Shown in pieces: positions 559-55,215 of a stretch of DNA of 64,000 nt (positions are counted from its first letter, which is position 1; every line of letters starts with the position of its first letter). The notes under the pieces were generated by a model. The model searched no databases and had not been told where the DNA came from. It was given only the letters and a program-made list of their open reading frames with translations. The translations under genes and the position numbers were made by a program. The DNA is from Patescibacteria group bacterium. GTDB lineage: Bacteria > Patescibacteriota > Patescibacteriia > Patescibacteriales > JBAZCA01. The stretch spans positions 136,120 through 200,119 of the forward strand of contig JBAZCA010000001.1 of NCBI GenBank assembly GCA_041671125.1, given 5' to 3'.

Positions 559-927
559 TTAGCCCTTTTTCATCTTCTCAATATCCCTTTTCACTCGCGA
601 AATAAGCTCTTCTTTGTTTTTAAATTTAATCGCTTCCCTGATTTTTTCGCCGATTTCCACCGTAATTTCTTTACCATATAAATCGCCGGAAAAATTAAAA
701 ATATGCGCTTCCAGCGCTTCCCCGCCAGGTAAAACGAACAAGGCCGCCCGGTATCCGGCGCCGTTAAACTTCACCCGACCCGAATATACTCCGCTGTCAA
801 TTTTTTTTTTCAAAGAAATATTGGCGGTCGGAAAACCAAACTCCGTCCCCTTCCCCTTGCCTTTAATTACCACTCCTTTTGCATTAATTCCCGTCATACA
901 AAGAAAAGGGCTTAATTGCCCCGTCAT
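559..927 (-). CDS. Riboflavin kinase domain protein
   Basis: GKGKGTEFGFPTANI matches the riboflavin kinase G-x-G-x-x-LGFPTAN motif. At about 120 aa it is a kinase domain only. The true start may be the internal M at 897. Confidence 0.6.
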   Translation of the reverse strand: MTGQLSPFLCMTGINAKGVVIKGKGKGTEFGFPTANISLKKKIDSGVYSGRVKFNGAGYRAALFVLPGGEALEAHIFNFSGDLYGKEITVEIGEKIREAIKFKNKEELISRVKRDIEKMKKG

Positions 928-959
928 AATTAAAAAATAAAATATCGCTCCTCTCCTCC

Positions 960-1120
960 GTAAGTTTAAGCGGAAAATATTTCATTTTTGAAGCGAGGCT
1001 TGTGTCTGACCGATCAGGCGAATTCCAGCCACCCAAAAAGCCATGCAATATCAACAAACTCACAATAATTATGCCTGGACTTCCGGAGCGAAAAAATGAA
1101 ATATTTTCCGCTTAAACGCA
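960..1120. repeat. Family A hairpin element, copy 1 (about 26 bp terminal inverted repeats)
   Basis: The arms gtttaagcggaaaatatttcattttt (964-989) and aaaaatgaaatattttccgcttaaac (1092-1117) are reverse complements. The sub-terminal motif catttttgaagcgagg / agcgaaaaaatgaa is shared with the copy at 6366-6515. Confidence 0.7.
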
Positions 1121-1122
1121 AA

Positions 1123-1719
1123 CTACTTCTCATACTCCAAAATCGCCTCTAGCACCTTTGAATCAACGCCTAACGGTTCCATATAAATAACCTGCGAGCG
1201 GACGACGTTCATACTGCCGGTCGGGCCGTGCGTCTCTTTTCCCCGTTTTACCAGTTTCAGGCTCGCCGTTTCGTCAACTTCTTTTTTATCGTCCCGGGTC
1301 TGCTCGTAATTATAATAAACATTTTCAATAACAACCGGATCAGCCTTAGTGTCTTTAACCTGGCCGTAAAATATTTCATCACTTACGAGCTTCACTGCGT
1401 ACCAGCCGGTAGCGTCCGCGGCCTTATTTTCCGGCATGCCGGCCGTCGGCGCCCCGCGAAAAAATACCCACCAGGCTCCGAAACCGGCCAAAGCGAAAAC
1501 CGCCAGGATGAATAGTATCCTCCAAACCGGCCCGCCTTCGTTCTTTTCCGCCGGCCGGGATATTTTCTGGAGATCTTTTTTATTTTCTTCTTTCTCCTGG
1601 CCGTAAATCTTTTCCATCGGGTCTTCTTTGGGCTTCTTAAAAAATTTATTCTTCCGTTCCATTTCTTTCCGTTCCATTTCTTCTTTTAAATTTACGGTTT
1701 GGGAAAAATTGTCAGCCAT
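1123..1719 (-). CDS. Hypothetical membrane-anchored protein
   Basis: 198 aa ORF with a charged N-terminus, one hydrophobic span (WRILFILAVFALAGFGAWWVFF) and then a soluble domain. No family recognised. Confidence 0.5.
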   Translation of the reverse strand: MADNFSQTVNLKEEMERKEMERKNKFFKKPKEDPMEKIYGQEKEENKKDLQKISRPAEKNEGGPVWRILFILAVFALAGFGAWWVFFRGAPTAGMPENKAADATGWYAVKLVSDEIFYGQVKDTKADPVVIENVYYNYEQTRDDKKEVDETASLKLVKRGKETHGPTGSMNVVRSQVIYMEPLGVDSKVLEAILEYEK

Positions 1720-1754
1720 ATTTTTTGATTACTTTGAATTACAAAATACCTATT

Positions 1755-1851
1755 CCTCCCCCTTACAAAGGGGGAGGCCAGGAGGGGGTGGGCAGTATAA
1801 TTTTAGGTAAAAACCCCTCCCCATCCCTCCCCTTCGTAAGGGGAGGGAACC
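1755..1851. repeat. Family D palindromic element (cccctt..aagggg arms), empty copy
   Basis: cctcccccttacaaagggggaggccaggagggggtgg and the inverted arm cccctccccatccctccccttcgtaaggggaggg. The same family occurs at 15989, 49381, 50363 and 50822. Confidence 0.75.
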
Positions 1852-1873
1852 CGTTTCGTAATTCAAATAGTTG

Positions 1874-2902
1874 TTAATCCGAGGGTAAATCCGCCGGAAC
1901 CAGAGCAGGTTCAGATTCAGCAACCGGCTCCGGATTAACCGGCAATTCAATAACCTGGACATCTTCCGGCTCGCTTTGCCCGGGTTGAGAATTTTCTCCG
2001 CCGCCAGGAACGGTAGCGTCAGAACCGGCAGTCTCGCCGCCGGCGGTTGGCGTTTCTCCAGCCGTGCCATCGCCCGTCGCGCCATTATCCGGTCCTGAAT
2101 TTTCCCCATTAGCGTTTCCGTCTTCCAAATCGCAGGCGTCGCCATTACCGTCTCCGTCAGCGTCTTCCTGTCCCGAATTGGCGACGTTCGGACAATTATC
2201 AAAGTTCCCAAAAATATTGTCGCTATCCGGGTCATTTTCCGTTATGTAATTATTATAAACCTGGGTAAGGTTATCCGGCCCGGAAGCGGTTTCAGCGCCG
2301 TCGCCGGACGAATTTTCAAATCCGGCGGTTAGCGCCCCGGCGGTCGCCGGAGTCGGCAATTCAATTTTTTTAACCGGTTCATAGCCCGGGAAAACATTGC
2401 CAGCCAGATTCATGGTTTTGCCGATTAATCCCGTATATTCTATCACTTCAATCCTTTTTTCTTCGCCGTTCTTTATCGCGCCCGCCTTCACTTCCATTAA
2501 TTCTTTTAACCGCTTATCTTTAATTTCCCCGAGCTCTCCGGCTAAAAATCCGCCAAGATCTTCTTTTAGGTTCTTCGTAACTTTTATCGTCCTTTCCCGC
2601 GTCCCGTACTGCCAGGCGCTGTTAATTACGGAGATATCAAGGTAAGTAAATGTCGCGTAATAATATTTTTCGTCACTCTCAATTTTTTCAATCTTAAAGC
2701 CAAAGTCATGATTTTCCAAATCAACCGCGAGAAGAAGCGTATTATCAATCCCCTCAACGCGGGTCTGTTTTTGGCCGATGGCGTCCGGTTCGGCCGCGAA
2801 AACCCCGGCCCCAAAAATAAAAACTACCGAGAAAATAATAATTGCCGCGTTATTATATTTAATGAAATCAATAATTTTGGAAGCAGATTTTTGCATATTC
2901 AA
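1874..2902 (-). CDS. Hypothetical surface protein with thrombospondin-type-3-like Ca-binding repeat
   Basis: N-terminal TM helix. DNCPNVANSGQEDADGDGNGDACD resembles a TSP type-3 repeat. The C-terminus is a low-complexity G/E/P/T tail. Confidence 0.55.
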   Translation of the reverse strand: MNMQKSASKIIDFIKYNNAAIIIFSVVFIFGAGVFAAEPDAIGQKQTRVEGIDNTLLLAVDLENHDFGFKIEKIESDEKYYYATFTYLDISVINSAWQYGTRERTIKVTKNLKEDLGGFLAGELGEIKDKRLKELMEVKAGAIKNGEEKRIEVIEYTGLIGKTMNLAGNVFPGYEPVKKIELPTPATAGALTAGFENSSGDGAETASGPDNLTQVYNNYITENDPDSDNIFGNFDNCPNVANSGQEDADGDGNGDACDLEDGNANGENSGPDNGATGDGTAGETPTAGGETAGSDATVPGGGENSQPGQSEPEDVQVIELPVNPEPVAESEPALVPADLPSD

Positions 2903-2984
2903 AGCGTTTCTTTTATCCTCTCCATTATACTATTTTTTACTCTCACTCGCAACACTCGCGAAAGGACAGGACACTGTCCTGTCC

Positions 2985-4358
2985 CTATACCATCCTTTCT
3001 TTACCAAATTTTACTTTTACCAGCCGGCCGGTAAACCCCCTATCGCGATCATCTTCCTTTTCCCGGTTTTTCCTGCCGGTCTTATCTTTAACGATCAACG
3101 ATTTATCAAAAGCAATATCAAAATAATATTCTGATTTGCCAATAAGCTTATCACCCGCCTTTTTCCCGCCAACAATAACGTAGAGTTCGCGGCCGATAAA
3201 TTTCTTTTCGTATTCACGGGAGAGCGCCTCACCGAGCATTTTGAGTTTTTTCACGCGCCTTTGTTTTATTTCATCACTAACAGCTCCGGGCATTTTCGCG
3301 GCCGGAGTTTTTTCATGGGCGGAAAAAGGAAAAACATGCAAACGGCTAAATTTTATTTCTTTAATGAAATTATAAGTGCCCATGAAGTCGGCTTCGGTTT
3401 CGCCGGGAAAACCGACAATAATGTCTGTCGTTATGGCGATATCAGGCATTAATTTCCTGATATTCTTAATTCTTAATTCGTAATTCTTAACCCCATACGG
3501 CCGGTTCATGAGCTTTAAAATTTTATCCGATCCTGATTGCAGAGGAATATGCAAATGCTTGCACATCTTATTATTCCCGCTAAGAAGCCTGATCAACCTG
3601 TCGTTCACTTCGGTAATTTCAATGGAGCTCAGCCTCACCCGCCCTAAATTTTCTATTCTTATAACCTTCCTTAATAAATTAACCAAATTTGATTGATCTT
3701 CCCCTTTTCTAATTTCCGGCTTCTCACTTCTAACTTCCAACTTCTTGCTTCCCGAATCTTTCCCATACAACCCCAAATGGATCCCGCATAAAATGATCTC
3801 GCGAAAACCGTTTTTTACTGCCTCGTTAATTTCCGCGATCACTTCGTCCTTATCGCGGCTTTTTAATTTTCCCCGGGCATAAGGAATAACGCAGTATGAG
3901 CAAAACTGTTCGCACCCGTCCTGGACTTTAATAAAATATCGGGATCGGTCACCGTTTCCCGGACTGCCGGTTTGATGGCATGCTAATAACTCTAAATTTT
4001 GATTTGTAACTTTTAACTCTGAATTTTTAATTTTTAATTTTGAAACAAAGCTTTCCAGCCGCTGTTCATCCGCAACAATTTCTGCATCCCGCAAGCCATC
4101 AATTTCATACACCTTAGGCCAGCAACCGGTCACGATTATGCGCGCTCCGGGGTTTTCCTTCCGCGCCCTATTTATCATTTGCCGGCCTTTTTGGATCGCG
4201 ATTTTTGTTACGGCGCAGGTATTAATAATTACTAGGTCAGCATCATTTTTTACCAGGCTGAAACCGGCCGCCTTAAGCTTTCCGGCCAAAGTCCGCGAAT
4301 CATACTGGTTGACTTTACACCCGAGAGTGTAAATTTTATATTTATTTTCCCGAACCAT
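2985..4358 (-). CDS. mtaB: MtaB-like radical-SAM methylthiotransferase (MiaB/RimO family)
   Basis: YTLGCKVNQYDS N-terminal UPF0004 motif, CxxxCxxC radical-SAM box (CEQFCSYCVIP) and a C-terminal TRAM-like region. Start placed at MVRENKYKIY; the ORF track extends to 4436. Confidence 0.8.
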   Translation of the reverse strand: MVRENKYKIYTLGCKVNQYDSRTLAGKLKAAGFSLVKNDADLVIINTCAVTKIAIQKGRQMINRARKENPGARIIVTGCWPKVYEIDGLRDAEIVADEQRLESFVSKLKIKNSELKVTNQNLELLACHQTGSPGNGDRSRYFIKVQDGCEQFCSYCVIPYARGKLKSRDKDEVIAEINEAVKNGFREIILCGIHLGLYGKDSGSKKLEVRSEKPEIRKGEDQSNLVNLLRKVIRIENLGRVRLSSIEITEVNDRLIRLLSGNNKMCKHLHIPLQSGSDKILKLMNRPYGVKNYELRIKNIRKLMPDIAITTDIIVGFPGETEADFMGTYNFIKEIKFSRLHVFPFSAHEKTPAAKMPGAVSDEIKQRRVKKLKMLGEALSREYEKKFIGRELYVIVGGKKAGDKLIGKSEYYFDIAFDKSLIVKDKTGRKNREKEDDRDRGFTGRLVKVKFGKERMV

Positions 4359-8015: not shown

Positions 8016-8315
8016 CTAATGGCCGCAACAGCAACAGCAACCCTCTTTTTTATCCCGGTGAGCCTCGGCCTCTTTTTCCATTTTTTCCAGCCGTTCATAG
8101 TAATCCGGGAATTCTTTCATGTGCGCCAAGGCAATTTTTCCGGTCATGATTTCGTCGTCATCGGTAACGTTGGTTTCGGAATCAATTGAGCCGTGTTCAA
8201 GCTCAACGTCCATGCCAAAACGGAATTGCTCCAAATCAAATTTACCAAAATCAACCCCGATCTTCTCACCCACTCTTTTAGCGTCTTCCAAGGTAAAATA
8301 TTTCTTCTCGCTCAT
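8016..8315 (-). CDS. Small DUF5661-like protein with C-terminal penta-cysteine tail
   Basis: GMDVELEHG...ALAHMKEFPDYYERLEKME resembles the DUF5661 motif (assigned from memory, not searched). It ends ...KKEGCCCCCGH. Confidence 0.55.
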   Translation of the reverse strand: MSEKKYFTLEDAKRVGEKIGVDFGKFDLEQFRFGMDVELEHGSIDSETNVTDDDEIMTGKIALAHMKEFPDYYERLEKMEKEAEAHRDKKEGCCCCCGH

Positions 8316-8331
8316 ATCGTAAAGTTAGTAA

Positions 8332-9438
8332 TTAATCACCGACGCAATTCTCCCCCGAAAGGGCGCTAGGAATAAAATCCGCCTTGTCCGACTCAAGATT
8401 GGCGCAAAGTAGATATTCGCTCCCGTCATCTTTTTTCAGCTCATAATAATAAACTTTGCTTCCGGCCTGCATATTAAATACGCCGTTATTGGGAGTTGGA
8501 TCGTCAAATTCTTTTTTCTCCTCATCCCAGCAGGTCTCGGCCTTAAAGCGCGCGTCACTGCAGGCTCCGATTTTATTGACCGGGTCGGACATAAGCGGCT
8601 TTAATCCCAGTTCCCCGGCGAAATTTTCCTGCCAGCTCGGCCAGACCGAAATCGTCCTGCCTTTAAGGTAAGTCCCTGATTCCAGTTTCGGATAATAGCC
8701 GCGCTCGTGATAATCTTTTAAAGCGATTTTCATTTCCGCGAGATCGGAAAGCCGAATCGTATCCCGAACTAAACGAGCTTTCTTGCTCAGACAGTATCCG
8801 CCCGCCGGACAATCTTTGTCAAAAAGGCATTTTATGACACATTTATTTCCTTCGCAGACATACCCGTCCAGACAAGTTTCGCCGGAGCAACTTTTTTCCT
8901 CGCCGATGTTTTCGCATTTGTTCGCCGCGCCGTTGTCATTCATCAGATTAACATTGAACTTCCAATGGTCAAGGATTTGACCGAGTATGTCCATGGTCGC
9001 CTGATCCGCGTCCTGGTTATAGGAAATGATATAAATGTTGGTAAAATAATTTTCATAAATTCCGTCTCCACCGTTATCAACGATATTGGCCGCGTTAACG
9101 TAAACCGTCCGGCCGTCGCGAACCGCCTGATAGCCGTCAACCGAGAGCGACTGGGGCGCGCCCTGCACATTTACGTTTTTGGAATACCATCTTAAGGGCG
9201 AAAAGTGGTCAGGATTAGGCATAACCCGGATGGCAATGGCATCAGAAGAACCAGTGTCGGCAGATGCAACCGGTCGGTTTACAGACGTTATAAAAATAAA
9301 AAATGCGCCGCAAAAAAAGAGCGCCGCGATAGAAAGCGTCTTTATTTTTTTCGTCCGGTCATAAAGACACGCCCTCCGTAACTTTTGGATTATGAATTCT
9401 TTAAGGCTTATACCCGTCATACCGGTATTATACCACAA
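8332..9438 (-). CDS. Hypothetical secreted/membrane-anchored Cys-rich protein
   Basis: N-terminal TM helix (SIAALFFCGAFFIFI), a Cys-rich middle (CSGETCLDGYVCEGNKCVIKCLFDKDCPAGGYC), and a C-terminal segment RLSDLAEMKIALKDY. No family assigned. Confidence 0.55.
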   Translation of the reverse strand: MWYNTGMTGISLKEFIIQKLRRACLYDRTKKIKTLSIAALFFCGAFFIFITSVNRPVASADTGSSDAIAIRVMPNPDHFSPLRWYSKNVNVQGAPQSLSVDGYQAVRDGRTVYVNAANIVDNGGDGIYENYFTNIYIISYNQDADQATMDILGQILDHWKFNVNLMNDNGAANKCENIGEEKSCSGETCLDGYVCEGNKCVIKCLFDKDCPAGGYCLSKKARLVRDTIRLSDLAEMKIALKDYHERGYYPKLESGTYLKGRTISVWPSWQENFAGELGLKPLMSDPVNKIGACSDARFKAETCWDEEKKEFDDPTPNNGVFNMQAGSKVYYYELKKDDGSEYLLCANLESDKADFIPSALSGENCVGD

Positions 9439-10402: not shown

Positions 10403-11491
10403 CTACTGCCCGGCGATTTCATCAATCGCCTGCGTTAGTATTTTAAAATCTTCCAGAGTATGGGTCGGAAAATTCGCGAGACGAAAATGGGTTTCTTTCA
10501 TGTCTTTATAGCCTTTACCCGGAAAAATCCCTTTGGCGTTCAATTGCTTATGAAATTCTTCGCCCGTTACGCCATTCGGCAGTTTAATGCATAAAACCGA
10601 AAGCGCCCGGTATTTATCCTCTTTGGCATGGACTTCCATGCCGTTATTTTTCGCCCAGCCGTAAATGTAGTCAGCCTTTTCCCGGGTTTCTTTTTCAATC
10701 CGCTCCATGCCTTTATTTTTAAACCGCCCGGCCTGTTTCGCGAGAAGATAAATCCCTAAGACGTTCGGGGTTTCAAAAGTCTGGTCTTTCGCGCCGTACT
10801 GTTCAAGGTTAGCGATTGAGTGGACAACACCGACGTCCTTTCCCTCCTCCGCCATTTTCAGGGCTTTGGCTTTAGCCCGGTCATTAACGATTAACACCCC
10901 GAGCCCGGCCGGAAGTCCAAAACCTTTTTGCACGGAAAAAAACCAGGCGTCAGCCAGCGAAAAATTAATTTTATGGGCTCCGGCGGCGGATACGATATCT
11001 ATGGCGATCAACATCTCCGGATGTTTTTTTCTGAAAGCCTCCAGCTCATCCTCAACCAAACTAACGCCGGTAGGAGTTTCAGTATAAGTTAGGGCCGCCA
11101 GTTCAAAACCGTTGCCGTTTATTTCCTCGTTGGCGTAATTAAAACCCATGCCCGATTCCACCTCTTTCACAACCGCTTCTTTGCCGATTTTTTTTAAGGT
11201 GCTGGCGAAGCGCTTGGAAAACGAGCCAAAAACATAATGGCAGCTTTTATTTAGAACAAGATTGCGGCCGGTAATTTCCATGCATTCGCTAGCCGAAGAA
11301 ACAAAGTAAATCGTATAACCGTCCGGAATTTCTAAAAACGCTTTTAAATTTTCCCTGGCCGCCTGGAAAATCGCTAAAAAATCCTTATGGCGGTGCGAAA
11401 GCGACAAAAGGTTTTTGTCCAAAGCCTCGCGAACGTCATTTTTTACGTCTTCCGAAACGGCCGACGGACCGACATTGAAATTTAAGTACAT
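10403..11491 (-). CDS. serC: Phosphoserine aminotransferase
   Basis: NFNVGPSAVS and SHRHKDF match the SerC N-terminal motifs. Class-V aminotransferase fold. Sits between serA and serB. Confidence 0.75.
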   Translation of the reverse strand: MYLNFNVGPSAVSEDVKNDVREALDKNLLSLSHRHKDFLAIFQAARENLKAFLEIPDGYTIYFVSSASECMEITGRNLVLNKSCHYVFGSFSKRFASTLKKIGKEAVVKEVESGMGFNYANEEINGNGFELAALTYTETPTGVSLVEDELEAFRKKHPEMLIAIDIVSAAGAHKINFSLADAWFFSVQKGFGLPAGLGVLIVNDRAKAKALKMAEEGKDVGVVHSIANLEQYGAKDQTFETPNVLGIYLLAKQAGRFKNKGMERIEKETREKADYIYGWAKNNGMEVHAKEDKYRALSVLCIKLPNGVTGEEFHKQLNAKGIFPGKGYKDMKETHFRLANFPTHTLEDFKILTQAIDEIAGQ

Positions 11492-11528
11492 AACGGTTTA
11501 TGCTATTAGTAAATGATTTCTATAAAGA

Positions 11529-11715
11529 GATGCGAGCATTGAAAAATTTTGGAAAAATCATGAGCGTGGAAAGCGTGTAAAATTCCACTGTTTGAGCGAA
11601 CCCGCCGAATCGGCGGGGAGCGAGTTTGGAATTTTACTAGCTTTCATAGCGAATGATCCAAAATTTTTCCTGCTCGCGATTTTTGCGCCACTTTTTCTAA
11701 AAAAGTGGCAAAAAT
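11529..11715 (+). repeat. Family B structured element (about 185 bp), copy 1
   Basis: gatgcgagcattgaaaaatttt...cccgccgaatcggcgggg...aaaatttttcctgctcgc...gccactttttctaaaaaagtggc. Nested inverted repeats plus a 3' hairpin. Lies between serC and serA. Confidence 0.8.
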
Positions 11716-11736
11716 ATTTAAATACAAAATACATTA

Positions 11737-12678
11737 TCACATATTCACACTCCCAGCTTTTCTGCCTTCGGCCATAAACCGGCAGACTTTCTCGCTCGTT
11801 GACAGCGCGATATCAACCTGAGCTTCTTCGGTTGAAGCGCCGATATGCGGGGTTAAAATTACGTTCGGAAGACCCTGTAATTCACATTCCATTTTTTCAT
11901 CGTTAGTTTTCGGCTCATTAGCGTAAACGTCAATTGCCGCTCCGGCTAAATGCCCGGATTTTAAAGCTGAGGCCAAAGCGCTCATATCAACAACGTTTCC
12001 CCGGCTTAAATTAATTAAATAACTTCCCGGTTTCATTAAAGCGATTTTTTCCGCGTTTATTAAATTCGGGGCCGAGGCATGGAGCGATACAACGTCCGCC
12101 TCTGCTAAAAGCTCTTCCAGGGTTTTCATCTTTTTCGCCCTGCCCATTGCCAACTTATCAAAAACGTCAAAAAATATAACTTTCATGCCGAGCGCTTCGG
12201 CTAAAACCGAAAGTTGGGAGCCAATATTGCCATAACCTACTATGCCCAAAGTTTTTCCCCGGACTTCATAAGAACCTTTGGCGCTTTTTTTCCAGTCTCC
12301 GGCGTGCATCTCCCGGTTCCGGTCGCCGATTTTACGGAGCAAACTAATAATAAAACCAATAGCCAGTTCGGCCACGCTTCTCGTAGAAGAAAAAGGCGCG
12401 TTAAAAACGCAGACTCCGGCCGAAGTACAGGCGGCGAGATCCACCTTATTCAAGCCGATAACATATCCGCCGATGACTTTGAGGTTTTTTGCGGCCGCGA
12501 GAACTTCCGCGTCAATTTCAGTCTTAGAGCGGATGCCGAGCACTTCCACGTCTTTGATTTTTTCTTTAAGTTCATCTTTTGGCAGAGTGCCTTTAATTAA
12601 CTCTACCTGAAAATCGCGCTCTTCATAATACTTTTTCGCGAGCTCGCTTATACCCTCTAAAAGCAATACTTTTGGCAT
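11737..12678 (-). CDS. serA: D-3-phosphoglycerate dehydrogenase (short form, no ACT domain)
   Basis: 2-hydroxyacid dehydrogenase with GIVGYGNIGSQ NAD motif. Context is with serC and serB. Confidence 0.85.
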   Translation of the reverse strand: MPKVLLLEGISELAKKYYEERDFQVELIKGTLPKDELKEKIKDVEVLGIRSKTEIDAEVLAAAKNLKVIGGYVIGLNKVDLAACTSAGVCVFNAPFSSTRSVAELAIGFIISLLRKIGDRNREMHAGDWKKSAKGSYEVRGKTLGIVGYGNIGSQLSVLAEALGMKVIFFDVFDKLAMGRAKKMKTLEELLAEADVVSLHASAPNLINAEKIALMKPGSYLINLSRGNVVDMSALASALKSGHLAGAAIDVYANEPKTNDEKMECELQGLPNVILTPHIGASTEEAQVDIALSTSEKVCRFMAEGRKAGSVNM

Positions 12679-12722: not shown

Positions 12723-13054
12723 TTGTCATCTCAACCTTAGCGCAACAGAGAGTCATATTTCTTCTGTCATCCTGAGCGTAGCGAAGGATCTGCGGATGCG
12801 TTTCATATATTCACTTTTTATAACGCGCCACCGATTCTTTCTCATACTCTTCAACCTCTTTTTTATTTATCCCGTAATCCTTAAATAACCCCTCGCTTAA
12901 ATCCAGTAAATTTAAAAATGACTGCGGCAAACGACAACCATCTTTATTTAAACCCTTAGATACTTATTTACGTTCGCAGATCCTTCGTCCCGAATATTCG
13001 GGACTCAGGATGACAAAATAAAAAAGGATTTCTCTCTCGCGCTTAGAATGACAG
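12723..13054. repeat. Family C palindromic repeats (tgtcatcctgagcg...ggatgaca), composite copy
   Basis: Left arm tgtcatcctgagcgtagcgaaggatctgcg (12765-12794). Right arm cgcagatccttcg...actcaggatgaca (12974-13014). About 180 bp lies between the arms, with additional half-sites at both ends. Confidence 0.75.
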
Positions 13055-13171
13055 AAAAAGAGGATAATAAAAGACAGCCAAATTTGGAAACCGGGAGCGT
13101 TTCCATTGGTCAGAGGTAGTACAATTCACTCTGCCAATACTAGTAAGGAAACACTCCCGGAACGACGAGGA

Positions 13172-13285
13172 CTAGTCGTCTGGACATTCGTCCTCGTCAT
13201 CAGGGGGATCGTCAATAATATCCCCCTCATACTCATAACGACCCTCTTCCAGAGAGTCGCCTCTGTCATCTAGCCCGTAGCCCAT
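13172..13285 (-). CDS. Candidate 37-aa highly acidic small protein
   Basis: Own translation: MGYGLDDRGDSLEEGRYEYEGDIIDDPPDDEDECPDD. Preceded by GGAGAGGAGGTG and 7 nt, then ATG. Too short for the ORF track. Confidence 0.35.
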   Translation of the reverse strand: MGYGLDDRGDSLEEGRYEYEGDIIDDPPDDEDECPDD

Positions 13286-13422
13286 AATATCACCTCCTCT
13301 CCGCCGGAGCTACACGGCAAAAAATAAAACGAACACGAAACCAGGAACTAAACCATGATTCATATTTACTTCCCGCTTTCCTATCCACTGAACCTTTTTA
13401 AAGAACAAAATTATTAAAAATG

Positions 13423-13607
13423 GATGCGAGCATTGAAAAATTTCGGGCGTATCACGAGCGTAGAAAGTGTGCAAAATTCCACTGTTTGAGGACCCGCCGA
13501 ATCGGCGGGGACGAGTTTGGAATTTTGCTAGCTTTCATAGTGAGTGATCCGAAATTTTTCAATGCTCGCGATTTTTGCGCCACTTTTTCTAAAAAAGTGG
13601 CAAAAAT
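13423..13607 (+). repeat. Family B structured element, copy 2
   Basis: Near-identical by eye to 40121-40304. The listed ORF 13420..13713 is a translation of this repeat. Confidence 0.8.
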
Positions 13608-13630
13608 TTTAACGCAACCTTATACATCTT

Positions 13631-14524
13631 TCAACCAAATAGCGTCGTACTTAAATATTTTTCCCCTCTATCCGGAAAGATCGTTACTATGTTTCCTTTA
13701 TCAATCTTTTTAGCGATTTTTAAGGCCGCGAGCAGGGCGGCGCCGGACGACATGCCGACAAAAATTCCCTCTTCGCTAATAATCCGCCGGGACATGGCAA
13801 AGGCTTCTTCGGTGTCAATCATAATAACGTCATCCAGTTTTTCGCGATTATAAATTTCTGGGATAATCGCTTCTTCCATGTTTTTTAAACCCTGAATATA
13901 ATGGCCGCGCACCGGTTCAGCCGAGACTATTTTCACCGCCGGATTTTTCTTTTTTAAATACGCTCCGATGCCCATGAGCGTTCCCGAAGTGCCAAGGGCG
14001 GCGGTAAAATAATCAACCTTGCCATTAAGGTCGCGCCAGATTTCCCGGGCGGTAGTTTCGTAATGGGCGATCTTATTATACTCATTGGAAAACTGGTTCG
14101 GGTTAAAATACTTTTCCGGATTTTCCGCTAATAGCTCCCGGACTTTCATTATAGCCCCGTCCGTGCCTTTTGTCTTCTCCGTCAAAGTAACTTTGGCGCC
14201 AAAGGCCTTAATCATTTTAATCCGTTCAGGCGAGACCGCCGCGCTCATCACTATTTCCACGCCGTAGCCGCGCGCCGCGCCGATCATGGCGAGGGCGATT
14301 CCGGTATTGCCGGACGTCGCTTCAATAATGGTTTTACCTTTGGTTAATTTTCCCTCCTTTACGCCCTGCTCCACCATTTTCAGGGCAATCCGGTCTTTTA
14401 TGCTTCCACCCGGATTAACGCCTTCAATTTTCGCGTAAATATTCACGCCCTTTTTCGTATTCAGCTTGTTGATCTTTACCATCGGCGTCCGGCCGATTGT
14501 TTCCAGTATATTATTATAAATCAT
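13631..14524 (-). CDS. cysK: Cysteine synthase (O-acetylserine sulfhydrylase)
   Basis: IGRTPMVKINKL...NPGGSIKDRIA carries the PLP-lysine motif, plus the SGNTG loop. Confidence 0.85.
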   Translation of the reverse strand: MIYNNILETIGRTPMVKINKLNTKKGVNIYAKIEGVNPGGSIKDRIALKMVEQGVKEGKLTKGKTIIEATSGNTGIALAMIGAARGYGVEIVMSAAVSPERIKMIKAFGAKVTLTEKTKGTDGAIMKVRELLAENPEKYFNPNQFSNEYNKIAHYETTAREIWRDLNGKVDYFTAALGTSGTLMGIGAYLKKKNPAVKIVSAEPVRGHYIQGLKNMEEAIIPEIYNREKLDDVIMIDTEEAFAMSRRIISEEGIFVGMSSGAALLAALKIAKKIDKGNIVTIFPDRGEKYLSTTLFG

Positions 14525-16974: not shown

Positions 16975-17391
16975 TTAACAGCTTCTTTCATCCTTCTTCA
17001 GCTTGTAATTAAAACTCTCAACAAGCGCTATCCAGCTCGCTTCTATAATATTCAATGACACGCCGATAGTCCCCCAGCGATCTTTGCCGTCGCTTGATTC
17101 AATAAAGACCCGGACTTTGGCCGCGGTCCCGTCTTTGGACGGCAGTACCCGGACTTTGTAATCAGTGAGCTTCATTTTTTTCAGCCGCGGATAGACTTTT
17201 TCAAGGGATTTCCTAAGCGCGTTGTTTAGAGCGTCAACCGGCCCGACGCCAGACGCCGTATTCCGCTCTTTATTAGCGCCAACTTTAATCCCGACTTCAG
17301 CTTCGGCCGCCGGCTCCCCCCAGTCCCTTTCTTTCTGGACTATTACCCGATAGTCCATAAGTTCAAAGAATTTTTTCTCTTTGTGAGGCAT
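16975..17391 (-). CDS. Stand-alone LeuA-type allosteric (LeuA_dimer-like) domain protein
   Basis: SGVGPVDALNNALRKSL...AAKVRVFIESSDGKDRWGTIGVSLNIIEASWIALVESF. It shares the GVGPxDA motif and following strands with the LeuA C-terminus (52332..) and the C-terminus of the 46074..47936 product. Confidence 0.65.
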   Translation of the reverse strand: MPHKEKKFFELMDYRVIVQKERDWGEPAAEAEVGIKVGANKERNTASGVGPVDALNNALRKSLEKVYPRLKKMKLTDYKVRVLPSKDGTAAKVRVFIESSDGKDRWGTIGVSLNIIEASWIALVESFNYKLKKDERSC

Positions 17392-17605
17392 ATTGTTTAG
17401 AGTTATTGAGACGGTGGCAAAACTAATTTTACAACCATCTCAATTATCCCCTTATAATATCAATCTAGCACATACTCCTAAAAATTCAATCCTCAGCTAC
17501 TTATAAATGATTTTTTCGGCATGCTTCGTCATAAAAACGGGATTCATGGAATGAAGCCTGATTTTTGGGAGAGGAGAAAAGACATTTTCTTCCGTCTTTC
17601 CTCCC

Positions 17606-17785
17606 CTAACGAAGCCCCAAATCTCTTTTGCATAGCTTACAAAACGGGGGCCTCATCTGCGGGATCAGGTCGTGGCAATCTTTAAAGATTACCACCTTAA
17701 CCTCTCTCCCGCAGCCTTTTTTCCTGCAAGTAAAAACAGCTGTTTCTCTCTCCCTTGCAGGTTGGAGAGATTTTTTTTGATCCAT
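17606..17785 (-). CDS. Small zinc-ribbon-like protein (59 aa)
   Basis: MDQKKSLQ...FTCRKKGCGREV...PPFCKLCKRD has CxxxC...CxxC. Preceded by CCGGAAAGGAGG and 6 nt, then ATG. Confidence 0.4.
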   Translation of the reverse strand: MDQKKSLQPARERETAVFTCRKKGCGREVKVVIFKDCHDLIPQMRPPFCKLCKRDLGLR

Positions 17786-17926
17786 CAGGAGCCTCCTTTC
17801 CGGCGTCTCATTAACGCCAATTTTTTTATTCCTCCTCAACCCTTAACTCATTTTCCGGTCAGTTTCCGGATAAGGTAAAAGTTGAGGAGAAGAGCGAAGT
17901 CCTCCGTGTTTCGCTCTTCTCTTTTT

Positions 17927-18130
17927 TCACATTCCGCGCGGGATTGGTCCCGGTTGGGATACGATTTGATGACGTTCCTGCTCGAGGCAATACATCGAGC
18001 AGGCCATCTGTCCCAGTAAAGGGGCGAGGTCAAATATCTTAATTCCTCGCCCCTTCACCGGGAACAGTCCCCGGCATACTCTGCAGGGGCAGACAATAAT
18101 CCTGCCCCTGAAAAGTTCAAAACCCTTCAT
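17927..18130 (-). CDS. Small Cys-rich protein (67 aa)
   Basis: MKGFELFRGRIIVCPCRVCRG...ACSMYCLEQ. Preceded by CCAAGGAGGG and 4 nt, then ATG. A hairpin follows at 17885-17925. Confidence 0.4.
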   Translation of the reverse strand: MKGFELFRGRIIVCPCRVCRGLFPVKGRGIKIFDLAPLLGQMACSMYCLEQERHQIVSQPGPIPRGM

Positions 18131-18361
18131 AGTCCCTCCTTGGCGGCGCAAGAACTGCCGCCTCTTTAAAATGAAAAACAATAAATCGCCTCTACAACTC
18201 CAGCCTCTAACAAAAACATCCACGTTATAAATATCAGCGTTCTTTCCGCGTATTTATCCGCGTCAAATCCACATTATAAATAAAGGCCAAAGTAATATCT
18301 GCGATTGTTTTAAAAGAACGGCTATACTTAAATTTTTATGTTTCAGCTAATCAAAAGCATT

Positions 18362-18481
18362 TGTCATTCCCGCGGAGGCGGGAATCCAGGGTAAAAAGGA
18401 ACATCCGGCTAATTACCTTAATATTGTAATCAGCGGTATTACGTTTAACTCCTGGATTCCGGCTCGGAGGCCGGAATGACA
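18362..18481. repeat. Family C palindromic repeat (cattcc/ggaatg variant)
   Basis: tgtcattcccgcggaggcgggaatccaggg...cctggattccggctcggaggccggaatgaca. Confidence 0.75.
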
Positions 18482-18485
18482 TAAA

Positions 18486-18517
18486 GATAAAAAAATACCG
18501 CCCCAATTGCGGGCGGC
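18486..18517 (-). terminator. Attenuator terminator of the Thr/Ile/Met leader
   Basis: Minus strand reads CCGCCC-GCAAUUG-GGGCGG followed by UAUUUUUUUAU. Its 5' half lies within a 12 nt sequence that is perfectly complementary to 18575-18586. Confidence 0.65.
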
Positions 18518-18596
18518 TGGCTGATTATTCTTTGACTTTCTTACTTCTAACTTCTTACTTCTAACTTATTTTCGCCGCCCGCAATTAAAACCCCGG

Positions 18597-18656
18597 TCAT
18601 AATAATTCCGGTCATCATCATAATGGTCTTAATTGTGGTGGCGTTTATTCTCGTCA
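18597..18656 (-). CDS. Candidate leader peptide, Thr/Ile/Met-rich (19 aa)
   Basis: MTRINATTIKTIMMMTGII, verified codon by codon. Similar in style to E. coli ThrL ([21 protein letters not shown]). The ATG lies 6-7 nt after the -10 box. Confidence 0.6.
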
Positions 18657-18662
18657 TGTTTA

Positions 18663-18692
18663 TATTTAATCAAACACCAACGAAACTGTCAA
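18663..18692 (-). promoter_or_regulatory. Sigma70-like promoter of the Thr/Ile/Met leader
   Basis: Minus strand reads TTGACA (18687-18692), 18 nt spacer, TAAATA (18663-18668), 6 nt, ATG. Alternatively a 17 nt spacer, TTAAAT and 7 nt. Confidence 0.55.
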
Positions 18693-18721
18693 TAACATGC
18701 ACCTGACACGGCATCCAAAAT

Positions 18722-18794
18722 AAAAAAAAAGCCCTCCGCGCGAAGATTAAGGGATTTGTGGTTCTGCGAAATACACAGAACGCGCGCGAAGGGC
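18722..18794 (-). terminator. Long-stem terminator ending the GC-rich locus
   Basis: Minus strand GCCCUUCGCGCG ... CGCGCGGAGGGC forms a 12 bp stem enclosing a smaller hairpin, followed by U9. Confidence 0.6.
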
Positions 18795-18799
18795 CTGGT

Positions 18800-19060
18800 T
18801 TACCGGCGGTCAGGACACAAGGGTGCCCTTTCTTTCGTCGCCGGAGGGGGGGCGGTGAGGGGCGAGTTGCCCCTCAAAGTAGCCAACTCTTGTGGAGACC
18901 CTAACCAGGCCTCCATGCTAACACGAAAATCCGCTCCCACCGGCGGTTCCCCAACCGCCGAAATAATCCCGCGGTGCCTAAGGCATTCCGGTCTCTGGCA
19001 CCCGGGCCCGCATGTCAACGTCTCCTCCCCGGGGGTGGGCGGAGTCTTTTGTTCGGACAT
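18800..19060 (-). other. GC-rich locus: either an 86-aa ORF or a structured RNA (unresolved)
   Basis: GGCGGAAAGGAGG, 6 nt, then ATG, opening an ORF MSEQKTPPTPGEETLTCGPGCQRPECL... The region also contains many GC helices: ggcctggtt/aaccaggcc, gaggggc/gcccctc, cggcggtt/aaccgccg and ggtgcc/ggcacc. Confidence 0.35.
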
Positions 19061-19190
19061 TTCTGTCCTCCTTTCCGCCCGGCGATGCCGGGCTGCTGTT
19101 AATAACGATCAACACCTCTCTGATTTTCATTGTCTTTCGTGTTTAAATCAAAAACAGAAAGCTATTGACGATTTATTATTTTTTAATGAA

Positions 19191-19410
19191 CTTAGGACTT
19201 ACGCGTTTGGAAAATAAACTCATTTTGTCATTCCGGTCGGAGCGTAGCGGAGAGCCGGAATCCAGCCTGCCTGCCGGCAGGCAGGGATTTAAAGGTAATA
19301 ATGTGTATATTTTTAAGATGCAGTTAGAGCTTTTAACCCTGGATTCCGGATAGCCTTACGGCTTCCGGAATGACAAAAGGGGTATTTGCGCGCAAACGCG
19401 TAAGTCCTAG
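19191..19410. repeat. Nested composite palindrome (outer acgcgtaagtcc arms around a family C core)
   Basis: cttaggacttacgcg...tgtcattccgg...cctgcctgccggcaggcagg...ccggaatgaca...cgcgtaagtcctag. Confidence 0.75.
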
Positions 19411-19635
19411 AACTAATATCCCGCAAATAAGTAAATTCTCTTTATTCGCGTCATTAGCGCGCATTCGCGTATTAGCATTACGAAATATTTGTAAATTTGT
19501 AACAGATTTGCCTGCCTGCCGGCGAGGCAGGTTGATTTGTGGGTATAAAGAAAATCTTCCCGCGCGGAAATGGGAAGACGAGATGGAAAAGTGCAGGCAC
19601 AATCCATTCACGCGCGGGTTTTTGCCTTGCCAGGG

Positions 19636-20185: not shown

Positions 20186-20215
20186 ATTATAAACAAAAAC
20201 TCTAACTTTTGTCAA
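20186..20215 (-). promoter_or_regulatory. Consensus promoter located between the tyrA stop and its terminator
   Basis: Minus strand reads TTGACA (20210-20215), 18 nt spacer, TATAAT (20186-20191). Confidence 0.45.
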
Positions 20216-20241
20216 TAGCGCTATGTTTTAGGAAAAATTGA

Positions 20242-52331: not shown

Positions 52332-53942
52332 TCACAAGCTCGCCAGATACCAGCTTAAGCAATTGGCGAACGCCTGGGCCGAGGCCTGGTTAGTATCAAT
52401 ATGGACCGCCCGGCCGGAAAAAGTATGGTTTTCGTCATTATTAATTCTTATCCGGCCGTAAACGTCGGCCAAAGCGTCTGATCCGGATGAAACCGCTACC
52501 GGCCGCCAGTCATTAAGGCTGATCTTCACTTTTTTTAACTCGGGATAAAATTCTTCCGCCGCCCGGATTACCGAGTGCATGATCGCGTCATACGGCCCGA
52601 CGCCGACTGAGGCGCTAATGCTTTCTTTGCCGTCAATTTCAACGACCACGGTCGCGGTCGGGAGACTGCCTTCTCCGCCGATAGCCTGACAGCGCTTTAC
52701 TTTAATCGGGAAAGGGATAATATCAATAGTCTCGTGCACAATCGCCGCCAGCTCCCGGTCGGATAAAGGCTTGCCGGCCATGGCCTCGGAAATTTTTACG
52801 GACTCGCTATAAATTTTTTGCAGTTCTTCTTTCCCGAGCGCGTATCCAAGCTCTTCCAGCCTGATGCGAAGCCCTTCCCGGCCGGAGGATTGGTTGATCA
52901 CGGTCGTAACTTTGGCATGACCGTAAGTTTCCGGGTGCCAGCTGTAATAAGCGCTCTCCATTCCCTGCTCCCGAGCTCGGGCTTCTATGGCCTGATGGGT
53001 GCCGGAAGAGCAGATTGAATTTTGCGCGCCGACGACGACCCAATGCCGCGGCACGTTCATGCCTAAGGCGTTCGCTATAAAGCTAACGATTTTTACGCAA
53101 AGCTCCGGTTTAAAATCAATCTTAAAATCACCGAACATGTCCTGCCGGGTATGCATGTTCATAATTATTGCCTCAAGTTTAGTCATGCCCGAGCGTTCGC
53201 CTAAACCGAAAAATGTTCCTTCAATAATGTCCGCGCCGTTTAACACGGCTTGCAGGGCGTTATGGGTTCCATGATCAGAGTCATTATGGCAGTGGATGGA
53301 AATAAGGGCGTTTTTCCGGTTAGGGACGTTTTCTTCAATTAGAGCGATTAAATCCCCGAATTCATTACCAACCCGAAGTCCGGTCGTATCCGGAATGTTG
53401 ACAACATCCGCTCCGGCGGAAATCACCGCGCCGACCATCCGGTACAAAAATTCCCGGCTGGTCCGAGCCGCGTCCTCCGGAGAATATTCTATACTTTTAA
53501 AACCAAGGCTCTTCGCGTAAGCCACCATAGCCCCTGCCTGGTCAATGGTCCAGTTTTGCTTTCCTTCCACAGTATCGCCGTATTTATCGGCGGCGAACAT
53601 GGCTTTGACAAAATCAGGCGAGGCCGGAATATAGATGTGGCATAAATCGCACCCCGCCTCCTTAATCGCGTCAATGTCTTCTTTTTTCGCCCGGGCCAGT
53701 CCGCCTAAAAGCGGCCTTTTTCCTTTGGCATTATTATTCACGAAATCCACAATCCGCCCGCAGTTTTCAAGCTGGACTTTAGAACTCCCGGGAAAACCGA
53801 TCTCAATCCGGTCAATGCCGCCTTCTAAAAGATAGCGGACATAAGTGAGCTGATCCCCGGGACTCATAGCCCCGCCCGAAACCTGGGCTGATTCCCGTAA
53901 GCAGACGTCGTTTAGCTGAATTTGTTTTTTGGCTTCGGTCAT
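52332..53942 (-). CDS. leuA: 2-isopropylmalate synthase family enzyme (a citramalate synthase cannot be excluded)
   Basis: LRESAQ, IEIGFPGSS and HCHNDSDHG are DRE-TIM HMGL-like motifs. C-terminal LeuA allosteric domain (GVGPYDAIMHSV...). Preceded by a Leu-rich leader. Confidence 0.85.
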   Translation of the reverse strand: MTEAKKQIQLNDVCLRESAQVSGGAMSPGDQLTYVRYLLEGGIDRIEIGFPGSSKVQLENCGRIVDFVNNNAKGKRPLLGGLARAKKEDIDAIKEAGCDLCHIYIPASPDFVKAMFAADKYGDTVEGKQNWTIDQAGAMVAYAKSLGFKSIEYSPEDAARTSREFLYRMVGAVISAGADVVNIPDTTGLRVGNEFGDLIALIEENVPNRKNALISIHCHNDSDHGTHNALQAVLNGADIIEGTFFGLGERSGMTKLEAIIMNMHTRQDMFGDFKIDFKPELCVKIVSFIANALGMNVPRHWVVVGAQNSICSSGTHQAIEARAREQGMESAYYSWHPETYGHAKVTTVINQSSGREGLRIRLEELGYALGKEELQKIYSESVKISEAMAGKPLSDRELAAIVHETIDIIPFPIKVKRCQAIGGEGSLPTATVVVEIDGKESISASVGVGPYDAIMHSVIRAAEEFYPELKKVKISLNDWRPVAVSSGSDALADVYGRIRINNDENHTFSGRAVHIDTNQASAQAFANCLSWYLASL

Positions 53943-53954
53943 AATTTAGATATC

Positions 53955-54100
53955 AAAATGACAATGCAAAAATTTAAAATATTGCATCGTCATCCTGAGC
54001 GTAGCGAAGGATCCCGTGAATAGAGCTATTACCACGAGATTCTTCGGCCTTCGGCCTCAGAATGACGAATTATTTTTTCATTTTACATTGTCATTTTGAT
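53955..54100. repeat. Family C repeat nested in an AT-rich outer palindrome
   Basis: Outer arms caaaatgacaatg / cattgtcattttg. Inner gtcatcctgagcgtagcgaaggatcccg...cggcctcagaatgac (53989-54066). Confidence 0.75.
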
Positions 54101-54123
54101 TTTTTGATTTTTACATTTTACAT

Positions 54124-54154
54124 TAATATAAAACGCCACCCTTTTTTAGGTGGC
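54124..54154 (-). terminator. leu attenuator terminator
   Basis: Minus strand reads GCCACC-UAAAAAA-GGGUGGC followed by GUUUUAUAUU. GCCACC can alternatively pair with GGGUGGC at 54191-54199 inside the leader ORF. Confidence 0.65.
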
Positions 54155-54179
54155 TTTCTTTCAATCTTCATCTAGTAAA

Positions 54180-54269
54180 CTACGTAAAAACCGCCACCCG
54201 TCTTAAAGGCAACAAGAGCAACAAGTTTAAAAACGGTTTAATATTTAATTTTTGATTTATTTTAAACAT
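54180..54269 (-). CDS. Candidate leader peptide, Leu-rich (29 aa)
   Basis: MFKINQKLNIKPFLNLLLLLPLRRVAVFT, verified codon by codon. 8 Leu, 5 of them consecutive (TTG TTG CTC TTG TTG). Confidence 0.65.
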   Translation of the reverse strand: MFKINQKLNIKPFLNLLLLLPLRRVAVFT

Positions 54270-54283
54270 ATAAAACCGCGCGG

Positions 54284-54412
54284 CTAAGCGACTTTCAAGA
54301 TTGATTTTATTTTTCTAACGTCCTCTTCCAGCGTCTTTACCATACCCAAAACAATCTCATTTTTCTCATCAAACTTATTTAATATTTCAAGTTTTTTATT
54401 ATCCTTGTCCAT
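54284..54412 (-). CDS. Candidate 42-aa helical small ORF preceding the Leu leader
   Basis: MDKDNKKLEILNKFDEKNEIVLGMVKTLEEDVRKIKSILKVA. The ATG lies 9 nt after a consensus -10 box. Its stop is 14 nt before the Leu-leader ATG. Confidence 0.4.
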   Translation of the reverse strand: MDKDNKKLEILNKFDEKNEIVLGMVKTLEEDVRKIKSILKVA

Positions 54413-54421
54413 ATTAACTCT

Positions 54422-54450
54422 ATTATATAAGCGGAGTCAGAAGTTGTCAA
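54422..54450 (-). promoter_or_regulatory. Consensus sigma70 promoter
   Basis: Minus strand reads TTGACA (54445-54450), 17 nt spacer, TATAAT (54422-54427). Confidence 0.65.
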
Positions 54451-54470
54451 ACGATTTATTAAGAAGAGAA

Positions 54471-54495
54471 GGCTGCCTGGAAAAACAAGGCAGCC
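54471..54495 (-). terminator. Hairpin terminator after the Cys-rich ORF
   Basis: Minus strand reads GGCUGCCUUG-UUUUU-CCAGGCAGCC followed by UUCUCUUCUU. Confidence 0.5.
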
Positions 54496-54504
54496 ATGAA
54501 CTGT

Positions 54505-54837
54505 TCATATTATCTCCTTTCTCCCCGGTATACATACCCGGGGCAATAAATCTCCTTTGACGTGCCCTTCAGCGAAGGGCACGTCAACGCCGCCGGAGGA
54601 AGGAGCCTCAGGCTCCTTCTTTTTTGTTAAGACCCTTAGCCGATACTCCGGCAAAGGTTCGCACTCAACACAAACCCCGTCATAAGTGACCGGAGCCTGC
54701 GCCGACGGGCACTTCACTCCCCGGAAATCGCAACCAGCGCATATCCGGAAAATTTCATGACCGTCTTCCCTGATAAAAAGGCACCCGTGCGGTTCATCGC
54801 GGTCGCACTCTTCGCACTTCCTCCAAAAATGAAACAT
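54505..54837 (-). CDS. Small Cys-rich (zinc-ribbon-like) protein; the 3' third is built of hairpin repeats
   Basis: MFHFWRKCEECDRDEPHGC...RICAGCDFRGVKC...CVEC. Preceded by CCGGAAAGGAGGAAGGA then ATG. The last 40 or so codons overlap three consecutive perfect hairpins, so the real C-terminus is uncertain. Confidence 0.4.
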   Translation of the reverse strand: MFHFWRKCEECDRDEPHGCLFIREDGHEIFRICAGCDFRGVKCPSAQAPVTYDGVCVECEPLPEYRLRVLTKKKEPEAPSSGGVDVPFAEGHVKGDLLPRVCIPGRKEII

Positions 54838-54881
54838 TCCTTCCTCCTTTCCGGGTCATGCCGCCTTCCGGCGCGACCCTT

Positions 54882-54983
54882 TTGTCTGAACCACTGATTT
54901 TCACAGAGAACACTGATTTCACTGATATATTAAATTAATCAGTGTAATCTGAGAAATCACGTGAAAATTAGTGGTTCAGACAA
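54882..54983. repeat. 102 bp nested inverted repeat upstream of the Cys-rich ORF
   Basis: Arms ttgtctgaaccactgattttcac (54882-54904) and gtgaaaattagtggttcagacaa (54961-54983), with one mismatch. Inner palindrome cactgat-atattaaatta-atcagtg. Confidence 0.8.
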
Positions 54984-55215
54984 AAATCAATCGTAAATTG
55001 ACAATCGTCAATTCCCAGGGGTGGGAAGAGGGCTAAGAAGTCTCAACCGGTCAGATGTGAATTGACCAGGAAATTTCTTAGCCCTCAGATGTTACGCGGC
55101 TTAGGTCCGGACATTCGTCCCGTAGTGGATACGGGACTACTCAAGCGTCAAAGACCGACGCTTATTGCGGCAAAGAACTGCCGCAAATTCCGGAACCCGG
55201 GAGGGCTCGGCGTGG

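Follow-up and report, generated by a model that had tools for sequence, protein, structure and literature searches.

A probable small-ORF transcription unit with a structured tail and an exchanged orphan body in a Patescibacteria group bacterium

The minus-strand locus at 18722-19110 of a 64,000-nucleotide (nt) stretch of contig JBAZCA010000001.1 from a Patescibacteria group bacterium (the whole stretch is referred to here as the window) is of an ordinary kind: it is not a known RNA, nor is it a conserved free-standing non-coding RNA (ncRNA). We consider it probable that the locus is a monocistronic transcription unit of a small open reading frame (ORF), with a structured tail and an orphan body that was swapped in by recombination. 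The original prediction had asked whether this GC-rich locus is a small protein gene or a novel structured RNA, a question with a mixed answer: the slot holds a protein gene in relatives and its 3' third is conserved as RNA, whereas the body found in the window is an orphan. The idea of a free-standing conserved ncRNA of 350-390 nt is unsupported, as the body is without homologue and covariation is confined to the 3' third. For annotation, the locus should accordingly be filed neither as a new ncRNA family nor as a conserved protein. Its features are as follows.

19105 to 19177, minus strand: conserved upstream block, with a putative promoter TTGATT-17-GAAAAT and a putative transcript start
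19078 to 19092, minus strand: hairpin CCCGGC-AUC-GCCGGG of the 5' untranslated region (UTR), window-specific, read from the sequence and from minimum free energy (MFE) folds
19067 to 19075, minus strand: extended Shine-Dalgarno (SD) sequence GAAAGGAGG, 6 nt ahead of the ATG at 19060
18884 to 19097, minus strand: strain-specific GC-rich body of ~215 nt, comprising the 5'-UTR hairpin and the first 59 codons
18800 to 19060, minus strand: orphan 86-codon ORF (MSEQKTPPTPGEETLTCGPGCQRPEC...LRGNSPLTAPPPATKERAPLCPDRR), TAA stop at 18800-18802
18857 to 18875, minus strand: H1 hairpin GAGGGGC-AACUC-GCCCCUC, kept in all four loci compared
18803 to 18844, minus strand: H3, with outer helix CCGGCG/CGCCGG and inner hairpin GGGCAC-CCUU-GUGUCC at 18813-18828
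18722 to 18796, minus strand: intrinsic terminator with a 14-bp outer stem around an inner hairpin (18762-18780), then U9 (18722-18730)

That the locus is richer in GC than its surroundings was borne out: the stretch 18791-19090 is the GC maximum among the 300-nt stretches of the window (0.637 compared to a mean of 0.449), and 200-nt segments across 18700-19099 have a GC content of 0.57-0.635 as compared to ~0.40-0.45 on both flanks. The GC stem followed by U9 that had been noticed on the minus strand is also there. Its outer stem pairs 18783-18796 with 18729-18742 (14 pairs including G-U), giving the GC-rich stem and U tract on the transcribed strand that are expected of an intrinsic terminator. 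A simple terminator scan (loop of up to 8) did not list it, because its 38-nt loop holds the inner hairpin. Likewise, the 86-codon ORF with its SD and ATG is found as described at 19060..18800, the GAAAGGAGG-N6-ATG arrangement being properly spaced for translation. The SD 9-mer occurs five times in the window as compared to 0.73 expected, a significant excess, and three of these copies (17792, 19067 and 54843) precede small ORFs in hairpin-dense units. The small Cys-containing ORFs 17785..17606 and 54837..54505 have the identical SD, which in the window is stronger than the AAGGAGG of the relatives described below. H3 wraps the last codons of the ORF and the TAA stop lies immediately 3' of it. 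As originally stated, the locus stands directly upstream of a promoter-like TTGACA-17-TTAAAT and a Thr/Ile/Met-rich 36-codon ORF (18657..18547).

The locus was compared with three related metagenomic loci. L093 was reached through a protein 97% identical to the LeuA_dimer protein encoded nearby; with the small ORF of L093, in turn, L095 (50 kb, syntenic throughout) and L096, a contig of a metagenome-assembled genome at NCBI, were found. The nucleotide identity of flanking genes to the window is ~95% in L093, 75-86% in L095 and ~78% in L096, with corresponding values at four-fold degenerate sites of 0.72-0.86, 0.55-0.68 and 0.51. The window and the three relatives have in common the upstream block, the position of SD and ATG, H1 (GAGGGGC-N5-GCCCCUC), H3, the two-level terminator and also the promoter-like block of the next unit; by alignment and synteny, flanks, SD-ATG and terminator occupy orthologous positions. 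The upstream block is 89% identical to that of L095 and 84% to that of L096, and the terminator is 96%, 93% and 63% identical to those of L093, L095 and L096, respectively. Both are conserved above the four-fold degenerate sites of the flanking genes. The non-coding scaffolds, made up of the upstream block, the 3' hairpin module and the terminator, surpass the synonymous sites of the neighbouring biosynthetic genes in conservation; the ORF body between them is exchangeable.

Codons 1-59 of the window's ORF show 28-29% ungapped nucleotide identity to the three relatives, which is the random level, and in a MAFFT alignment the body is 35-37% identical to its counterparts. Since window and L093 share ~95% identity over the adjoining genes, the body differs by replacement and not by divergence. 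The replaced segment and that of the relatives are equal in length (59 codons). The block from H1 to the stop codon is 77% identical to the distant L096 and only 69% to the close L093, which indicates that the alleles of the slot are mosaics and points to recombination among diverged alleles. Searches with the body (18884-19097) found no relative in the compared loci, elsewhere in the window or among plasmids or phages, and the H1 motif had no match in viral contigs. Inversion of an ancestral segment was considered as a reason for the equal length and was rejected, as searches of both strands show no similarity. An assembly chimera is unlikely, since reads bridging the junctions would be required for a k=141 assembly to place a 215-nt foreign segment between native flanks. 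At the boundaries of the replacement, inspection by eye for integron attC sites revealed no GTTRRRY/RYYYAAC pair; no integrase scan of the window was made. Two further scans for relatives were of little use: among the matches listed in a ThrC-based scan of genome contigs the relatives had at most 44% identity, too little for synteny, and a scan of metagenome contigs based on the PDH/CM gene gave relatives at 39-58% identity, none of which has the element.

In L093, L095 and L096 the body encodes a CxxC...CxCxxC protein of 81-92 aa (P0123, P0124 and P0125) whose conserved N-terminal domain runs in the order CxxC, WCY, CxCxxC and GASQASHLNFLG. Over the first 54 codons the ratio of non-synonymous to synonymous substitution rates (dN/dS) is 0.12, 0.18 and 0.09, the substitutions at the three codon positions number 12/9/22, and by codon score the coding frame stands out clearly as the best. 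Judged by these patterns, the ORF of the relatives is a genuine protein gene under purifying selection. AlphaFold predicts a beta-hairpin N-terminal part with a predicted local distance difference test (pLDDT) score of 62-72, followed by a tail that is disordered. The matches to Pfam DUF2769 and TIGR04272 are weak and stay below threshold. The window's ORF resembles these zinc-ribbon proteins in its slot, upstream block, SD-ATG position, N-terminal length of 59 codons and terminator, and in the stretch LRGNSPLT encoded by H1. Unlike them it has no zinc-ribbon domain and no detectable similarity over codons 1-59. BLASTP aligns residues 60-85 with the zinc-ribbon proteins and nothing else, and their conserved Cys columns are absent from the window's ORF, whose similarity thus falls short of membership in the family.

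The 3' 160-190 nt were tested for structure in an alignment of the four sequences (window, L093, L095 and L096). The consensus comprises H1, H2 (not in the window), the outer and inner helices of H3 and the outer and inner stems of the terminator. In this module 94.7% of the aligned cells are paired, as compared to 38-50% when the partners are slid by 1-3 columns, and double changes occur in eight pairs (slid controls, 0-1; shuffles, 1/500). All eight pairs of H1 are kept in the four loci (100% paired), and its two substitutions are both non-synonymous (R to G and N to Y) and yet structurally neutral: one, A to G, yields a G-U pair and the other is a change of A to U in the loop. Changes on both sides were found in five pairs of H3. 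The outer stem of the terminator is 100% paired in the four sequences with two compensatory pairs, and its inner hairpin is maintained in L096 with different bases. The ends of the ORF vary, with an early TAG in L095, TGA in L096 and TAA in the window and L093, and L096 reads the identical 20 nt TGTGTCCTGACCGCCGGTAA in a frame other than that of the window and L093. As the relatives read the same DNA in different frames, the 3' nucleotides are conserved regardless of frame. Within the limits of this alignment, it is shown that the 3' module (H1, H3 and the terminator) is constrained as RNA. The covarying helices are confined to this 3' third, which is not enough for a new ncRNA family.

Based on these data we propose that a minus-strand unit of ~395 nt would be transcribed from the conserved block at 19177-19105, starting at about 19118, and end at U9 (18722), apart from the leader transcript. 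The strong SD would lead to translation of the orphan ORF, whose Pro/Gly/Arg-rich polypeptide may be a young or neutral product and not a selected folded protein. The 3' hairpins would serve as a stabiliser of the transcript end and as terminator, and the latter would insulate the unit from the thr-type leader unit downstream. In this genome, the body of ~215 nt including the first 59 codons has been replaced, probably by recombination, with an unrelated GC-rich and hairpin-rich sequence.

Several results weigh against this proposal. The promoter of the upstream block is a putative one, assigned from conservation alone, and a consensus promoter scan of 19105..19177 gave no site. The covariation rests on four sequences, two of which are mutually close, and the 3' structure was derived from the same alignment on which it was scored. 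Random replacement does not explain the equal length of 59 codons. With respect to the ORF, in dinucleotide shuffles of this composition a frame is open by chance with P = 0.10 over 85 codons and P = 0.17 over 58 (at the locus itself two of the six frames are open). Its GC content at codon positions 1/2/3 is flat (0.60/0.63/0.67), with no codon periodicity, as compared to 0.52/0.38/0.51 in native genes; the other small ORFs retain the low GC of position 2. By codon score frame 0 is surpassed within the set of six frames, and among 500 equally long pieces of real genes none scores as poorly. Because codon periodicity is missing, the frame score is poor and the open frame is at chance level, the ORF may encode no functional protein.

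An antisense frame outscores that of the ORF, unlike in every other small ORF tested in the window. We rejected the corresponding antisense ORF of 153 aa (18756..19217, plus strand), although its codon score is the best of the six frames: its TTG start lies within the terminator stem, it has no SD, it runs antisense through the conserved upstream block, and the substitutions among the relatives concentrate at third positions of the sense frame.

The 86-aa product is Pro/Gly/Arg-rich with four Cys. AlphaFold gives it a mean pLDDT of 55 and no fold, and it matched nothing in Pfam, NCBIfam or the PDB. Among ~5.8 billion protein clusters its sole match is itself (P0001), from a single contig (ENA ERZ27249449 k141_224736). 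A full phmmer search over 1.84 billion representatives added one match, P0122 (E = 1e-14), a 752-aa product encoded on a contig resembling an integrative and conjugative element (ICE); we rejected it as an artefact, as its score sums ten identical weak 25-aa matches in a tandem-repeat product. On that contig (L094) positions 752-3010 hold the 752-aa 'protein', which consists of 13 tandem 57-aa repeats, among ICE-type genes of DUF3262, DUF3487 and DUF2895. For the window's ORF neither homologues with an excess of synonymous changes nor a native codon signature were found. It is probably translated, to judge by its signals, yet carries no mark of a selected, folded protein.

The ORF could still be a genuine selected small protein, an alternative allele (idiomorph) acquired by recombination from an unsampled variant of the population, a view to which we give a low probability. 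It would fit the extended SD at the correct spacing, which is a hallmark of the other small Cys-containing ORF units of the window, as well as the in-frame N-terminal part of 59 codons as in the relatives, the TAA shared with L093 and the four Cys, and the mosaic alleles suggest exchange among alleles that already existed. On the other hand, no homologue was found in either of the two protein collections, the composition of codon positions is flat, the antisense frame scores higher, the product has no predicted fold and the length of the open frame is within what chance allows.

A second alternative, which we think unlikely, is that the locus is a decayed remnant in which the zinc-ribbon gene was lost by illegitimate recombination or insertion, leaving a functionless body between a promoter and a terminator that still matter. 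An orphan without coding signature is what one would expect in this case, and the region is a hot spot for change: compared to L095, a MITE-like (miniature inverted-repeat transposable element) insertion of 368 nt occupies 19178-19545, and a second slot nearby has been replaced. Decay is harder to reconcile with the retention of a strong SD, an ATG and an open frame and with a codon length equal to that of the relatives' allele. Moreover, the body is hairpin-rich like the alleles of the relatives, suggesting a similar origin and not random DNA.

The claim that the locus is heavily base-paired stood in part. All six helices named in the original prediction are present in the sequence. However, the look of the locus is mostly an effect of GC content, since it is unremarkable once MFE is regressed on GC, where it falls outside the 15 most structured 300-nt stretches of the window. 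With the terminator included, the MFE is -179.7 kcal/mol for the minus strand and -166.5 kcal/mol for the plus strand, with z of -4.5 and -3.3, respectively, against dinucleotide shuffles; without the terminator the z of the minus strand is -2.8. Four of the six helices fall in the strain-specific body and are thus beyond comparative testing, and the 9-bp long-range pair (18792/18903) shares bases with the terminator stem and is not in the MFE fold. The original prediction had found no match to RNase P RNA, transfer-messenger RNA (tmRNA), signal recognition particle (SRP) RNA, 6S RNA or a cobalamin riboswitch, and the searches agree: Rfam 15 gave no match for 18722-19110 at the gathering threshold, nor up to E = 10 with permissive filters, and ARAGORN found neither tmRNA nor transfer RNA (tRNA) at the locus. 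Two sub-threshold Rfam matches, cyano-S1 and Flavo-1, were rejected, as they sit in neighbouring MITE-like repeats outside the locus.

These results bear on a third alternative, that the whole transcript is a structured non-coding or dual-function RNA, a chain of hairpins in which the ORF is incidental, which we hold to be more doubtful still. The minus strand does fold better than the plus strand, and the transcripts of the relatives are extremely structured (z = -9.5, -7.7 and -8.9; in L093 the sense strand has -191 and the antisense strand -166 kcal/mol). In the coding hairpins of the relatives most substitutions exchange G-C or A-U for G-U or the reverse, so that synonymous changes in stems mostly preserve pairing. 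At codons 51-61, where the protein has diverged, L093 and L096 each form a 10-bp hairpin from different sequence, and the changes in H1 are neutral for its structure. Against this, the body is unconserved and no covariation is demonstrable there, the z without the terminator and the fold after correction for GC are unremarkable, Rfam is silent, and the body of the relatives is under selection at the protein level.

Mildly unusual, at the level of the lineage, is that small-ORF units of this kind form hairpin chains (fold z between -6 and -9.5) and exchange their bodies among close strains; the hairpin density of these units is extraordinary. A related idea goes further. The lineage may carry a class of 'hairpin-chain' units, each with an extended SD, a small Cys-containing ORF and a string of helices, in which the helices are selected and the bodies are swapped as cassettes between close strains, and the GC-rich body of the window would then be an alternative, functional cassette in an element with a dual RNA/protein function. 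We regard this idea as tentative and, on balance, unlikely. In its terms the helices would be selected in their own right because of the switches between Watson-Crick and G-U pairs, the compensatory changes, the hairpins kept where the protein diverges and the 3' module read in varying frames. At least three candidate units lie in the window, all on the minus strand, at 17560-17960 (z = -8.8), 18722-19177 and 54480-54880 (z = -6.4), and the locus studied here is the least structured member of this local class of hairpin-dense small-ORF units. The element is placed among operons of amino-acid biosynthesis. If the pattern of conserved scaffolds, exchangeable bodies and hairpin-dense units is general, it would offer a tractable case of joint selection on mRNA structure and protein in small genes, and would show small proteins being turned over like cassettes among close strains.

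A second slot for a small Cys-rich ORF lies at 17606-17839 (minus strand) and has the same extended SD (17792-17800). Its body is wholly different between the window and the otherwise 95%-identical L093 and is replaced in L095 too; the counterparts are at 1352-1621 in L093 and at 10739-10927 and 11168-11470 in L095. Farther away, 53942-56039 is a gene-poor, hairpin-dense region of 2.1 kb, in which an ORF of 110 aa with multiple CxxC motifs (54837..54505) has a GGAAAGGAGGA SD and stands directly upstream of a LeuA/CimA-like gene of 536 aa. Further strongly structured stretches are at 13000-13700 and 11400-11800.

Finally, it is very improbable that the locus regulates the downstream thr-type operon in cis, as a leader or a riboswitch, or that it is a dispersed repeat of the repetitive extragenic palindromic (REP) or MITE kind, for although it lies upstream of the Thr/Ile/Met leader ORF, the LeuA_dimer gene and thrC and REP-like palindromes abound nearby, it has its own conserved terminator, the leader ORF has a separate conserved promoter-like block, a different ORF follows the slot in L096, and the locus is single copy in the window and in the compared loci and lacks terminal inverted repeats.

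The leader ORF itself (18547-18657, minus strand; MTRINATTIKTIMMMTGIIMTGVLIAGG...) is thrL-like and is followed by an attenuator-like terminator at 18497-18517. Its promoter-like TTGACA is at 18687-18692. Since an SD is lacking and the distance from the end of the -10-like TTAAAT to the ATG is 7 nt, the mRNA of the leader peptide may be leaderless. A 14-nt repeat (TTCTTACTTCTAAC, twice in tandem at 18538-18565) overlaps the 3' end of the leader ORF, and an exact look-up of the leader peptide returned no record. In L096 the promoter block of the leader precedes a different ORF, which contains Cys.

On the other side of the locus, the insertion at 19178-19545 is absent from L096 as well as from L095. 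Its terminal inverted repeats of 17 bp (19193-19209 and 19393-19409) are perfect, and it looks like a MITE. REP-like palindromes (GTCATTCCGG...CCGGAATCCAG) sit inside it and are found again at 18360-18480; they are separate from the sequence of the locus. The motif GTCAATAGC-N4-TGTTTT is found at 19151-19169 (minus strand), within the conserved block, and inverted at 20211-20229 (plus strand) near the start of the PDH/CM gene; it may be an operator or promoter element common to both. In L095 a toxin-antitoxin pair (Polbeta nucleotidyltransferase and HepT-like; 8261-9084), not in the window, lies between the PDH/CM gene and the small-ORF slot.

Downstream of the leader, 17927-18130 (minus strand) encodes a small CxxC protein (MKGFELFRGRIIVCPCRVCRG...GPIPRGM) with ~74% nucleotide identity to L093 (~945-1146), a proper codon signature and no family match. 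A stand-alone gene of 138 aa for the allosteric LeuA_dimer domain without a catalytic domain (16975-17391, minus strand) lies just upstream of thrC and is kept in L093 and L095. Most database relatives of its product are the C-termini of full-length citramalate or isopropylmalate synthases. The homologues P0006, P0063 and P0056 were set aside, as they proved to be pieces of full-length citramalate synthase genes whose surroundings are unrelated. The sole non-tRNA Rfam match of the window is a full-length LOOT RNA (RF03000) at 62870-62997 (minus strand; 79.5 bits compared to a gathering score of 46.4), for which a literature search of a limited collection found nothing.

Among known systems, RNase P RNA, tmRNA, SRP RNA, 6S RNA and the cobalamin riboswitch resemble the locus in size and in being GC-rich relative to an AT-rich genome; unlike them the locus has no Rfam 15 match. 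REP elements, including bacterial interspersed mosaic elements (BIMEs), and MITEs share with it the clustered GC-rich hairpins in a strain-variable intergenic region, whereas the locus is single copy, has no terminal inverted repeats and contains an ORF with SD and ATG. The dual-function RNAs SgrS/SgrT, RNAIII/hld and SR1/SR1P are coding as well as structured. In these, as in the locus, a small ORF lies inside a strongly structured and self-terminated transcript of a few hundred nucleotides, and the locus differs from them in that its structured body is not conserved in the window. Rho-independent terminators and structured 3' UTRs, including small RNAs derived from 3' UTRs, resemble the locus, which has a GC-rich stem directly followed by a U tract (U9), compensatory changes that preserve this stem, and upstream hairpins that are kept whatever the reading frame. 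The locus departs from them in its 38-nt terminator loop, which holds a conserved hairpin of its own.

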